64,000 nt of DNA. It comes from a virus. Of the stretch, positions 6,244-10,592 are shown piece by piece. Below the pieces are notes generated by a model. It was not told where the DNA came from. It ran no database searches and saw only the letters and a list, made by a program, of their open reading frames with translations. The position numbers were made by a program, and so were the translations under genes. Position 1 is the first letter of the stretch. Each line of letters begins with the position of its first letter. Where the stretch lies: IMG/VR virus record IMGVR_UViG_3300042446_001683, one strand, 5' to 3'.

Positions 6244-6417
6244 ATGGAAGGTAAGTATGTAATCATAGATCTAAGAAATATGGATTTTATGAAGGATGAA
6301 AATGGTACTATAAAATACTATGATACCGAAGAAAAAGCAAGTCTTATATGTGGTATACATGAGCTTGAGAACGCTTGGGTAATGAAATTAATTTATAATC
6401 ATATAGAAGCACAATGA
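6244..6417 (+). CDS. hypothetical protein (57 aa, not in ORF track)
   Basis: MEGKYVIID...HIEAQ; tight operon spacing. Confidence 0.6.
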   Translation: MEGKYVIIDLRNMDFMKDENGTIKYYDTEEKASLICGIHELENAWVMKLIYNHIEAQ

Positions 6418-6557
6418 TGGATCAAATAGGTTATGGTATATTGTTTGCCTTACTAGGACTAGCAATAGCGTTTATAGTATATATTGGGGTATGGATGCCT
6501 AAAGATAAAATGAAGGGCCACGCCGGTAGAGGCAAATGTAAATGTTGTAAAGATTAA
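6414..6557 (+). CDS. small membrane protein with Cys-rich tail (47 aa)
   Basis: one TM helix then KCKCCKD; ATGA overlap. Confidence 0.55.
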   Translation: MMDQIGYGILFALLGLAIAFIVYIGVWMPKDKMKGHAGRGKCKCCKD

Positions 6558-6561
6558 AAAA

Positions 6562-6772
6562 TTAGCCCCGCTCGCGAGGGGATCGTAAAACACAGTAAGC
6601 CTCTGACATAAGCTCAAGTAACTGTTCTCATCGTATAGGAGATAGAGTTAGCCTTCTCGACGTCGTTTAAAAAGGCAACTATTAGTAAACTTTAGTACCC
6701 GTACTGAGGACGTAGGGCTAAGTAAGATACAATTCCGTCCCGCAGGGAGTAGAATGCTAAAGAACTGATAGT
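6562..6772 (+). ncRNA. candidate structured non-coding RNA
   Basis: ORF-free gap with several nested complementary segments (see findings). Confidence 0.5.
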
Positions 6773-6777
6773 AATAT

Positions 6778-6883
6778 AGTCAGGTGGCGTTTTGGAAAGC
6801 GCGGCACCTTCCAGGGTTGAGATTAACAGCTAATGGCACTCAAAATGATAAAGCTGAAGCAGGTTCGATTCCTGTCCTGACTA
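6778..6883 (+). ncRNA. tRNA-like RNA with expanded, non-canonical anticodon domain
   Basis: acceptor AGTCAGG/CCTGACT, D-stem GCG/CGC, T-arm GCAGG-TTCGATT-CCTGT. Confidence 0.7.
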
Positions 6884-6897
6884 CTAAAATTAAAATT

Positions 6898-7140
6898 ATG
6901 GCAAAATTAACAATAGAATTTGACCTCGTTGAGGAAGCAGAAGGAATACACTCTGCACTATACGGATACAAGTATAGAAGTTTACTTTGGGAACTAGACC
7001 AAAAACTACGTAGTGTCCACAAATACGGAAGTGCGTTACAAGGTCAAGGTGAAGCAACATCTGAAGAAATGGATGTATGTTACCGTCTAAGAGACGTTAT
7101 TAGAGAAATGCTACAAGAAGATAACTTAACAATAGAATAA
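6898..7140 (+). CDS. hypothetical protein
   Basis: true ATG lies after the tRNA-like element. Confidence 0.7.
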   Translation: MAKLTIEFDLVEEAEGIHSALYGYKYRSLLWELDQKLRSVHKYGSALQGQGEATSEEMDVCYRLRDVIREMLQEDNLTIE

Positions 7141-7388: not shown

Positions 7389-8351
7389 ATGATTAAACTC
7401 ACTGACTTACTTAAAGAATTAGACCTACGTAGTGGAGACCTAGATGATAATATCACCCTAGAACAGGTATTAATAGCATTTTTAGAAGACTTTCAAATAC
7501 CTGAAGATGAATTCTTTACTGTAAGTAGAGGTAAGTTTAACTCTGAGGACTTTGATCTAAAACCTGGTGCTACATTCAATCCTAAGATACTTAAGAAAAC
7601 AACTCTTATATCTGATGGTGATTATGAGTTTATAGTCCCTTCTACTTACCGTGGTACTTTATATTTAGTAAATACTAAAGGTACTACTTTAGATGATTAT
7701 GTTATAGGGCAAGTAGAGGTAGAAAAAATATATATCAACGCGAATTCCGGGCGTACTAAGCCATATCGCATACCTGGTGCAGAGATACATTTAACATATG
7801 TTAGCCCGAAGTACCGCGGCAAAGGACTAGGCGTTAAGATGTATACTATGTTATTAGAAGCATATAAAACAATTTTCTCAGATAACATCTTATATCCTGG
7901 TAGCTGGAAGTTATGGATTAGTAAATTGGCTCCTATAGGTTTAAAACAAGGTAACTTTATTGGAGGTGAAGTAGGAGGAATTATTGTTCCGTTTACTCCT
8001 GAAGATATAAGTGATGCTAGTTTGATGGAAGGTATAGGAGTAGACCACTTAATACTATCTACTGAACCGCCTCAAGTATTACTCGACATTAAACAAGCAT
8101 TATCAGGTTTATCTCTATCTAAAGGGGATTATGGTATCTATGAAATGAGAACTTCAAATCTTAAAGTAACTCAATTAGATGAAATTGTTGACCAAGTTGG
8201 TTCGATTGAAGAAGTAATTGAAGAAGCTGGTTTAATACAAGTAGTTGGATTAAATGATGATGATAACTACCCAGCTATAGTAGTAGCGACTCAGGACGCT
8301 TTAGCGGTGATTCGCGAGGTAGGTGACGATGTTACTCTAGAAATCGTCTAA
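7389..8351 (+). CDS. GNAT-family acetyltransferase with MIKLTDLLKE leader
   Basis: YVSPKYRGKGLG acetyl-CoA motif A; SD...W downstream. Confidence 0.7.
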   Translation: MIKLTDLLKELDLRSGDLDDNITLEQVLIAFLEDFQIPEDEFFTVSRGKFNSEDFDLKPGATFNPKILKKTTLISDGDYEFIVPSTYRGTLYLVNTKGTTLDDYVIGQVEVEKIYINANSGRTKPYRIPGAEIHLTYVSPKYRGKGLGVKMYTMLLEAYKTIFSDNILYPGSWKLWISKLAPIGLKQGNFIGGEVGGIIVPFTPEDISDASLMEGIGVDHLILSTEPPQVLLDIKQALSGLSLSKGDYGIYEMRTSNLKVTQLDEIVDQVGSIEEVIEEAGLIQVVGLNDDDNYPAIVVATQDALAVIREVGDDVTLEIV

Positions 8352-9014: not shown

Positions 9015-9818
9015 ATGCCACTAGATTTAAACAACAACACGTTTTTAACTGCTTCTGAAATTAGAGAGAAAGCAAGTTCAATTTTCACAACTACAAGTGC
9101 TCCAGGTACTAGTCAAAAGTACTCACACATTTCAACTAAACAGATCATTGATGATATGGAAGAATTAGGATGGGGTGTGGTGGATGCTAAACAAGTACGC
9201 GCCCGTAAAGGTGAAGGTTTTCAAAAACACTTAGTAGTGTTCCGTAACAATGATTTGTTCATTGAGGGTGCTGATGGTGATAATGTGTTTCCACAAATTC
9301 TATTAACTAATAGTCATGATGGTAAAAATGCGTTTACATTCACAGCTGGTTTGTTCCGAATGGTTTGTGAGAATGGTTTAGTAATTTCAACTCAAGAGTT
9401 TGAAAATATGAAGATTCGCCACTACGGATATGATTTTAATGAGTTACAAACTGTTATTAATACAATGGTAGGAGCGTTACCGTTAGCAGTTGAGTCAATG
9501 AATCGTTTCAAACAAACACAACTAGCTCAAGAACAAATTTTAGAGTTTGCTCGTAAAGCGGTTCAAGTACGTTTTGGTGAGGAACATGCGCAAAACATTG
9601 CAATTGATTATAACGCCTTAACCACAGCTACTAGACCTGAAGATCGTGGTACTGATTTGTGGAGTGTGTTTAATGTGATTCAAGAGAAAATTACTCAAGG
9701 TATGTTTGAGTACCAGTCAGGAGCTAAAGTAAGAAAAGCTCGTAAGATTAAGAACTTCAGACAAGACTTAGATTTGAATGCTAAGTTGTATGAGTTGGCA
9801 GCTGAGTTTGCTGCTTAA
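9015..9818 (+). CDS. DUF932/DUF945-family protein
   Basis: LLTNSHDG...AGLFRMVCENGL signature. Confidence 0.8.
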   Translation: MPLDLNNNTFLTASEIREKASSIFTTTSAPGTSQKYSHISTKQIIDDMEELGWGVVDAKQVRARKGEGFQKHLVVFRNNDLFIEGADGDNVFPQILLTNSHDGKNAFTFTAGLFRMVCENGLVISTQEFENMKIRHYGYDFNELQTVINTMVGALPLAVESMNRFKQTQLAQEQILEFARKAVQVRFGEEHAQNIAIDYNALTTATRPEDRGTDLWSVFNVIQEKITQGMFEYQSGAKVRKARKIKNFRQDLDLNAKLYELAAEFAA

Positions 9819-10282: not shown

Positions 10283-10354
10283 GCTTCTTAAGCATAAAAG
10301 GTGATGCACCTGATTTGTACTCAGGATAAGTGGGTTCGATTCCTACAAGAAGCT
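10283..10354 (+). tRNA. trnT: tRNA-Thr(TGT)
   Basis: GCTTCTT/AAGAAGC acceptor, GCAT/ATGC D-stem, CCTGA-TTTGTAC-TCAGG anticodon arm, GTGGG-TTCGATT-CCTAC T-arm. Confidence 0.85.
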
Positions 10355-10358
10355 CTAC

Positions 10359-10499
10359 ACTCAAGTGGCGAAAGGATCAGGAGGCCCTGGTCGATGGTAG
10401 ACGCGACGTATGGTTATAACAACGTGGGTAAAAAATCATCTGAACAAGATGTGGTCATTATAATGGCAGCTCGTGCAGGTTCGATTCCTGCCTTGAGTA
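10359..10499 (+). ncRNA. tRNA-like RNA (Leu-type D-arm) with D-loop insertion and replaced anticodon domain
   Basis: ACTCAAG/CTTGAGT acceptor, TGGCG...GGTAGACGC, GCAGG-TTCGATT-CCTGC. Confidence 0.7.
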
Positions 10500-10504
10500 C
10501 AATA

Positions 10505-10578
10505 GCGCCCTTAGCTCATTCGGTTAGAGCAACTGACTCATAATCAGTAGGTACCTGGTTCGACCCCAGGAGGGCGCA
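10505..10578 (+). tRNA. tRNA with CAT anticodon, probably Ile2 (lysidine-modified) rather than Met
   Basis: GCGCCCT/AGGGCGC acceptor, ACTGA-CTCATAA-TCAGT; body resembles Ile2 tRNAs. Confidence 0.85.
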
Positions 10579-10592
10579 CTAAATTTTTTATT

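Follow-up and report, generated by a model that had tools for sequence, protein, structure and literature searches.

A structured hairpin RNA family located beside tRNA genes in uncultured freshwater phages

Organization of the locus

The window, the whole 64,000-nt stretch of viral DNA analysed here, has a low G+C content (~30-35%), carries nearly all of its genes on the plus strand and contains a baseplate gene (baseplate wedge protein by Pfam and PHROGs). It looks like a low-G+C phage genome. The best explanation of its source is an uncultured freshwater phage, myovirus-like by its baseplate gene, in which the gap described below heads a tRNA island. Using blastn and megablast, no match in GenBank phages was found for 20 kb of the window, for the gap, for the hairpin RNA within it (the rod) or for the adjoining tRNA-like gene. 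The main features of the gap are:

6562 to 6677, plus strand: module U, a conserved structured RNA module of ~116 nt (MFE z +1.46)
6678 to 6772, plus strand: the rod, a 95-nt hairpin RNA (model R1, 107 bits, E 5.6e-27; MFE z -2.25)
6778 to 6883, plus strand: tRNA-like gene (Rfam tRNA model RF00005, 32.7 bits; missed by ARAGORN)

No plus-strand ORF of at least 30 aa occurs between the ORF ending at 6557 and the ORF starting at 6898, and the rod has 41% G+C as compared with ~30-35% in the window. The preliminary description of this DNA had likewise called the gap free of ORFs and relatively GC-rich. Upstream lies a small ORF (6414-6557) whose stop codon is found 5 nt before the start of module U at 6562. 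The neighboring ORFs of the window (GNAT, DUF932 and baseplate wedge protein by Pfam and PHROGs) were uninformative on the RNA.

The tRNA-like gene begins 5 nt past the rod end, and the tRNA model hit (6778-6883, 32.7 bits) bears out the earlier statement that the element abuts such a gene. Its acceptor stem, D arm and T arm are perfect, and 47 nt stand where the anticodon arm of the model has its 13 inner positions. ARAGORN and Rfam at gathering thresholds have their sole matches in the window in a tRNA-Thr (10283-10355) and a tRNA-Met (10505-10579); a permissive Rfam scan of 6300-7100 adds a single real match, the tRNA model at 6778-6883. A second anticodon-less tRNA-like gene of 141 nt (10359-10499), with acceptor ACTCAAG/CTTGAGT, a D arm and the T arm GCAGGTTCGATTCCTGC, is located between the tRNA-Thr and the tRNA-Met. 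Between the two tRNA clusters are a DUF932 protein (E 4.6e-31) and a protein with a weak GNAT match, at 9015-9818 and 7389-8351, respectively.

Within 6562-6772, no family among the 4,227 models of Rfam 15 reaches its gathering threshold. The best sub-threshold matches were CRISPR-DR10 (16.6 bits against a threshold of 39, E 1.1) and mir-9412 (15.5 bits against a threshold of 70, E 8), and neither ARAGORN nor RF00005 gave a tRNA or tmRNA signal. The gap RNA had not been recognized at first as a tmRNA, SRP RNA, RNase P RNA or riboswitch, and the Rfam scan, which found no family match, agrees. Identity as a small ORF, tmRNA, SRP, RNase P or 6S RNA was without support in these searches.

Structure and covariation of the rod

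The rod consists of three helices:

6678 to 6686 with 6764 to 6772, plus strand: P1, double changes in 9 of 9 pairs, e.g. AAACACAUU/AAUGUGUUU
6690 to 6697 with 6755 to 6762, plus strand: P2, 96.3% of cells paired, double changes in 6 of 8 pairs
6704 to 6712 with 6736 to 6745, plus strand: P3, covarying pairs and a small internal loop

The rod folds modestly better than shuffled sequences (z -2.25, matched by 6 of 200 shuffles); U (z +1.46) and the whole 341-nt gap (z +0.45) do not, so that the expectation of an energy better than that of shuffles held for the rod only. Energy alone would refute most of the claim of a structured RNA, and the case rests on comparison with other sequences.

Rod alignment A1 comprised 67 distinct copies, and pairs were counted on a hand-made structure. 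An RNAalifold fold had recovered P1 and P2 and missed P3 because MAFFT gaps broke the register, and was set aside. In A1, 85.5% of the cells are paired versus 34-50% when the partners are slid by 1-3 columns, double changes occur in 21 of 29 pairs, and the covariation score is 0.445 as opposed to 0.176 for shuffled alignments, none of 500 shuffles reaching the observed score. Within P3, pair 33-77 is AU in 38 sequences, CG in 18 and UA in 10; pair 40-71 is GC in 40 and AU in 25; pair 41-70 is AU in 40 and CG in 26; and C32-G78 becomes U-A in 8. Pair 21-92 is AU in 36, CG in 17 and UA in 12. An unbiased mutual-information scan of 165 distinct copies ranked the same nested pairs at the top.

All pairings quoted in the preliminary description were found where it had placed them, and the three that it assembled into a long rod, ACTATTAGT/ACTGATAGT (6678/6764), CTTTAGTA/TGCTAAAG (6690/6755) and GGACG/CGTCC (6708/6736), all display compensatory changes among the 67 distinct homologues. 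On this comparative evidence, the rod is a real structured RNA whose three pairings lie far beyond chance.

At one position of P2, a U·G pair is kept by 66 of 67 sequences; at one position of P1, it is kept by 48 of 67. Because a conserved U·G would be an A·C mismatch on the opposite strand, the rod is read from the plus strand, as are the tRNAs. The plus-strand RNA structure originally proposed from G-U pairs is thus upheld by G·U pairs conserved in up to 66 of 67 homologues. The same pairs bear on a DNA-level reading, in which the stretch would act not as RNA but as a mobile element with inverted repeats, a site of recombination or a binding site for a protein. The rod arms are indeed inverted repeats, many genomes carry the element, and hairpin Pa, in module U, is terminator-like on the minus strand. 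We nevertheless consider this reading extremely improbable, given that the conserved G·U pairs (66/67 at the P2 pair, 48/67 at the P1 pair) exist on the plus strand only, that the orientation to tRNAs is strictly constant, that the P1 arms differ in sequence among phages, and that the stretch is present in RNA libraries.

The apical loop and its candidate docking site

The core of the rod contains the following elements:

6715 to 6736, plus strand: apical loop 22-mer GGGCUAAGUAAGAUACAAUUCC, near-invariant, the exact 22-mer in 97 IMG/VR stretches
6746 to 6754, plus strand: 3'-side bulge GGAGUAGAA, conserved, candidate docking site of the loop
6728 to 6730 with 6749 to 6751 (UAC:GUA), and 6734 to 6736 with 6746 to 6748 (UCC:GGA): candidate docking pairs

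Both the loop (6713-6735) and the bulge GGAGUAGAA are almost invariant across homologues, an invariance that is partly built in for the loop, which served as bait in several scans. In the scan that fixed the flanks and left the loop free, most copies nevertheless had an identical loop, and 25 distinct variants departed from it at 1-3 positions. Positions C6718 and G6722 change jointly (CG 156, UA 6, UG 1).

The variants that do occur are informative about docking. In L024, a find of the covariance model, the loop UAC is changed to UGG together with a change of the bulge GUA to CCA, and a loop C to U change likewise accompanies a bulge G to A change. In all IMG/VR copies with otherwise canonical loops, A to G is the sole change at position 61 and C to U the sole change at position 62; these changes are wobble-compatible, so that pairing with U83 and G82 is kept, and no single change of G82 or U83 alone was found in the IMG/VR scans. 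G80 is replaced by A in three sequences, in which C27 stays C and C67 is U in two of the three, a pattern that favors CC 6735-6736 over CCC 6698-6700 as the pairing partner of GG 6746-6747. A first model that paired C27-C28 with G79-G80 is disfavored for the same reason. The CCC at 6698-6700 can instead pair with the loop GGG at 6715-6717; these bases are invariant, and the match is extended by the partly covarying pairs 29-46 and 30-45.

We interpret these changes as follows. The 22-nt loop probably docks onto the AGUAGAA bulge, as one double swap and the wobble-compatible changes indicate, and the one double-swap sequence together with three wobble-compatible lineages suggests a candidate kissing-type double pseudoknot around P3.

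Module U and its relation to the rod

The upstream module has the following predicted elements:

6566 to 6569 with 6578 to 6581, plus strand: hairpin Pa (CCCC/GGGG), covarying, 100% of cells paired
6592 to 6596 with 6621 to 6625, plus strand: stem Pb (ACAGU/ACUGU), invariant, enclosing Pb2
6604 to 6606 with 6614 to 6616, plus strand: Pb2 (UGA/UCA), covarying from UGAG/CUCA to UUAA/UUAA
6626 to 6629 with 6639 to 6642, plus strand: hairpin Pc (UCUC/GAGA), invariant in 22 sequences
6645 to 6647 with 6656 to 6658, plus strand: hairpin Pd (GAG/CUC), with loop UUAGCCUU at 6648-6655
6651 to 6654 with 6673 to 6676, plus strand: candidate pseudoknot Pe (GCCU:AGGC), with two changes only, both wobble-compatible

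A search with nhmmer found U (6555-6680) in ~25 fetched loci, 22 of them distinct. Among these 22 homologues, 97.3% of cells are paired versus 38-51% when slid, and double changes occur in 8 of 34 pairs. Its sequence is very conserved, and alone it folds worse than shuffles (z +1.46). Judged by the alignment, U is conserved in ~22 distinct loci, with covariation weaker than that of the rod. At one Pa pair, CG becomes UA in 5 sequences, and at another it becomes AU in 1, so that CCCC/GGGG is converted to CUCC/GGAG or CCAC/GUGG. The ACAGT/ACTGT pairing (6592/6621) is constant in the 22 homologues. Two optional hairpin insertions occur in U, each covarying internally; other phages carry an extra hairpin inside Pb, where the inserted CUAUAC/GUAUAG covaries. 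The Pd stem reaches 7 bp in long forms of the module and shows A-U to G-C changes.

Two longer-range pairings had been put forward for this region. The first, AGTTAGCCTT/AAGGCAACT (6646/6672), survives in its core, GCCU 6651-6654 with AGGC 6673-6676, and not in its remaining pairs; the core is a possible pseudoknot formed from the loop of the covarying Pd (6645-6647/6656-6658), according to the alignment. The second, a pseudoknot between TTAGCCC at 6562 and GGGCTAA at 6715 in the rod loop, is not borne out. It conflicts with Pa, since both use the same C run, which is already engaged in that covarying hairpin, and in most loci the rod occurs without the upstream sequence. The comparative data point to pairings within the rod, between loop and bulge, in preference to pairing of the loop with 6562.

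These results bear on whether the gap is a single 210-nt RNA, with U and the rod acting as a unit and the rod loop GGGCUAA paired with UUAGCC in U. We regard this as unlikely. The modules are contiguous in the window and in ~16 distinct contexts, RNA contigs of two studies span both, and UUAGCC occurs also in the Pd loop (6648-6655), where it is free to pair. However, the rod occurs without U in more than 90% of its contexts with its loop unchanged, U precedes it in only 16 of 186 distinct rod contexts, and the two need not adjoin: U lies 640 nt upstream of the rod in L004, and in L002 it is followed directly by the tRNA-like gene, with no rod adjacent. Moreover, the site at 6562 is occupied by Pa, the complementary bases are invariant and so lend the proposed pairing no covariation, and chance could well supply a 6-nt match within 116 nt. 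The claim of one indivisible RNA of ~210 nt is not supported, U and rod occurring independently in other phages, and by comparison among these phages the gap comprises two evolutionarily separable parts, module U (6562-6677) and the rod (6678-6772), each a conserved, folded RNA.

Some minor features of U were also observed. The hexamer AUCGUA occurs at 6582 and 6630, with a third copy in long forms of U. Across 6553-6591, Pa followed by AUCGUAAAAC weakly resembles a CRISPR repeat (Rfam CRISPR-DR10, E 1.1). A role of Pa as a CRISPR repeat or mimic (RNA anti-CRISPR) was rejected, as the invariant 13-mer after the hairpin occurred at most twice per genome and formed no arrays in 401 genomes of the class of the sole rod-bearing metagenome-assembled genome (MAG). 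Pa also looks like a minus-strand terminator, but the upstream A-run is not conserved among homologues, and this candidate was dropped as well.

Size and distribution of the rod family

In IMG/VR and lake metagenomes, at least ~265 copies of the rod were found in at least ~260 loci. The apical 22-mer GGGCTAAGTWAGATACAATTCC was present in 97 IMG/VR stretches, and a scan of the flanks only, with the loop left free, found 109 stretches. When three positions of the loop were freed, at least 120 matches were obtained in the metagenome collection, and the run records identify the holders as lake-water and freshwater samples. A looser pattern, GTACCY...GGGAGTAGA, was abandoned, its matches being mostly due to chance (3 of 100 loci pass the model). 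Among 185,579 species genomes, a single one carries a rod, on an 81-kb contig of a Bacteroidia MAG. No rod was found in 50,697 GenBank phage records (blastn, E up to 1).

On sequence comparison, the rod is a member of a large, undescribed family of phage RNAs that lies between tRNA genes in hundreds of contigs. Neither Rfam 15 nor the GenBank phages contain it, and in the searchable literature its sequence strings retrieve unrelated papers only. The family is new relative to Rfam 15 and GenBank phages; published candidate viral RNAs include 8,495 unnamed ones from IMG/VR (PMC10690425), among which the rod may figure.

Association with tRNA genes

With ARAGORN and 200-nt flanks, a canonical same-strand tRNA was found beside 93 of 174 distinct rods, and none was found on the opposite strand. 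When a simple acceptor-plus-T-arm detector was used on top of ARAGORN, a same-strand tRNA or tRNA-like gene was located within 200 nt of 142 of the 174 distinct copies (82%), mostly 0-10 nt from P1; the other 18% had no recognizable tRNA beside them. As in the window, an AGTCAGG-type tRNA-like gene is found 3' of 43 of 186 rods. The 5' neighbor of the window's rod is module U and not a tRNA.

The 3'-end 25-mer of the tRNA-like gene (acceptor and T arm) occurs in 43 IMG/VR contigs. The genes that it marks form a tRNA-shaped family in which the acceptor stem, D arm and T arm are constant and the middles are very different. Several of these loci also hold the rod, and some hold the upstream module U. 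In these contigs (L001-L043) the family is large. Its members share a T arm, a D arm like that of tRNA-Leu and an acceptor stem that is identical throughout; the anticodon arm is replaced by unrelated modules, 30-90 nt long, and several such genes may be arrayed on one contig, e.g. L010.

No protein family was found near rods beyond ~30 of 258 loci (~12%), which indicates that the link is to tRNAs and not to a protein gene; a protein partner from the neighborhood was dropped as a candidate on this ground. HNH endonucleases are among the commonest protein neighbors. So are an RNase H-like family (PF04308) and the HAD domain found in "Swiss Army Knife" RNA repair proteins (PF18143); genes for these two recur within ~1-1.5 kb of rods in about 23 loci each (e.g. 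L324:2575-3165 and L319:703-1158). These neighbors hint that the tRNA islands belong to RNA-repair or counter-defense modules.

Presence in lake RNA libraries

Fourteen lake DNA runs cover most of the stretch, and six metatranscriptome runs cover a short part of it. Four RNA runs were aligned to the stretch. Two RNA contigs from two studies, of 195 nt (6573-6767) and 185 nt (6584-6767), lie on the gap as whole contigs and both end at 6767. In a third RNA run, contig starts fall at 6776/6777, beside the RNase P site predicted at 6778, and one contig of that run bridges 6713-6802, which fits a precursor. This evidence consists of assembled metatranscriptome contigs, which may contain DNA and cannot show true ends or strand. 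Within that limit, the contigs cover U and the rod and bear on the question of a transcript raised in the preliminary description. They hint that, in this phage, U and the rod persist as one RNA that ends just before the RNase P site.

A model for the rod RNA

Starting from the observed fold, strand, family, tRNA context and presence in RNA libraries, we infer a processing route, a tertiary docking and an action in trans. With moderate confidence, we propose that tRNA-processing enzymes release the rod from the transcript of the tRNA island as a small, stable RNA whose conserved core acts in trans. The gap would encode a non-coding RNA at the head of the tRNA island. In the rod, the long P1-P2 stem would carry a compact core in which P3 is capped by the near-invariant 22-nt loop, and this loop would fold back to meet two conserved strands, CCC and GGAGUAGAA, at the base of that helix. 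The rod would be transcribed jointly with the flanking tRNA or tRNA-like genes. Of the host enzymes that process tRNA ends, RNase P would then cut at 6777/6778, where the downstream tRNA-like gene begins; an upstream tRNA, if present, would be cut past its discriminator base by RNase Z or an equivalent 3'-end enzyme. The product would be a stable RNA of ~100 nt; in the phage of the window, the rod would stay joined to U in an RNA of ~200-215 nt. The conserved core may bind a conserved partner in trans, either a host or phage protein or an RNA, most plausibly from tRNA, translation or RNA-repair and counter-defense biology.

The position between same-strand tRNA genes and the long P1-P2 stem would also suit a cis-acting spacer of the tRNA array, which would insulate pre-tRNAs, block exonucleases or present an RNase III or RNase E site and be functionless once released. 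We think such a role quite improbable. A stem alone would do for it, yet 22 loop bases and a 7-nt bulge are almost invariant among widely differing phages while the stems drift, and the RNA contigs suggest that the rod persists.

Similarly low is the probability that we assign to a new class of self-cleaving ribozyme that trims the ends of neighboring phage tRNAs, an activity proposed for HDV-like theta ribozymes, with the loop-to-internal-loop pairings forming the active site. Most rod copies lie within a few nt of tRNA 3' and 5' ends, conservation of the compact core is very high, and the two candidate pairings of its loop with internal-loop strands resemble the twister topology. Theta ribozymes beside phage tRNAs set a precedent (PMC10879173). 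On the other hand, no Rfam ribozyme family matches the rod even at E up to 10, the helices are arranged in an order unlike that of the HDV fold, no cleavage site can be assigned, and the RNA contigs run unbroken through U, the rod and the junction of the rod with the tRNA-like gene. RNase P and RNase Z would suffice for release.

A broader proposal is that the rod represents a new catalytic or ligand-binding RNA class with a kissing-type double pseudoknot core, serving as a tRNA-array ribozyme or as a defense decoy or aptamer, which we hold to be doubtful. If it were true, the core would pair CCC with GGG, and UAC and UCC with GGAGUA, wrapped round P3; the ribozyme version would mature phage tRNA arrays without host enzymes, and the decoy or aptamer version would disarm host tRNA-targeting defense. 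Phage tRNA islands are now read as modules of counter-defense and translation takeover. The non-tRNA RNAs that they contain, of which RNAC and RNAD of T4 are the classic cases, have been functionally obscure for decades. Hundreds of natural variants of the rod, a defined fold, a near-invariant loop and evidence of expression in lakes make the question of function testable for this family.

Comparison with known RNAs

Among the nearest known systems are small RNAs of phage tRNA regions. RNAC and RNAD of T4 are small non-coding RNAs in a phage tRNA cluster that are co-transcribed with tRNAs and whose function is still unknown (PMC3014915). The rod is similar in being found in a phage tRNA cluster on the tRNA strand (82% of 174 distinct copies), but it is not tRNA-shaped; its long stem, candidate pseudoknotted core and invariant 22-nt loop have no described counterpart among those RNAs. 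Blastn against the 50,697 phage records (E up to 1) gave no homology of the rod to the tRNA-region RNAs of T4 or T5.

In the twister ribozyme, internal-loop strands of a stem pair with both halves of the terminal loop, and the candidate pairings of the rod would give it a similar topology. Membership was rejected on model scores and helix order: no Rfam twister model matches, and the conserved nucleotides differ. Theta ribozymes, 1,753 of which adjoin phage tRNAs in phages that apparently infect Bacteroidota and Bacillota (PMC10879173), are, like the rod, small and compact and lie against tRNA genes of uncultured phages; they are pseudoknotted, as the core of the rod may be. Membership in the HDV-like and theta group was rejected too, with no HDV-family Rfam match at E up to 10 and a different helix order. 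The covarying helices of the rod are nested hairpin helices with the 5' and 3' ends paired, whereas HDV-like ribozymes form a nested double pseudoknot and have their cleavage site at the first base of P1; with the candidate docking included, the rod has the strand order B5-P3-B3-D5-P3'-D3 in a closing stem, versus the nested P1/P2/P3/P1.1 of HDV.

Orphan structured RNA motifs of phages and metagenomes have been found by comparative genomics, among them the Rfam motifs of Weinberg et al. 2017 (PMC5737381). The rod resembles them as a covarying, phage-borne RNA motif in metagenomic DNA, but none of the 4,227 families of Rfam 15 corresponds to it. As a family it is new within a known general kind, the orphan small RNAs of phage tRNA clusters, and for that kind both its support and its conservation are unusual. 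It extends the set of orphan structured RNAs by a widespread, well-supported family and serves as a marker of its freshwater carrier phages.

Variants of the rod

In some phages, a hairpin is inserted in the 3' strand of P3. Optional hairpin insertions are typical of structured RNAs. In L367, L394, L405 and L019, the extra hairpin (e.g. UACAUUUAUGUA) lies in the 3' strand of the P3 internal loop and turns the rod into a three-way junction. Two rod copies occur ~1 kb apart in five loci; the paired rods of L064, L080, L086 and L100 differ in P3 type and in one loop base, which marks them as diverged paralogues. The sole variable loop base (6724 in the window, column 56 of A1; A or U) tracks the P3 sequence type, with A accompanying the CUGAGGACG and CCGCUGACG types and U accompanying the CAGCGGUGAG type.
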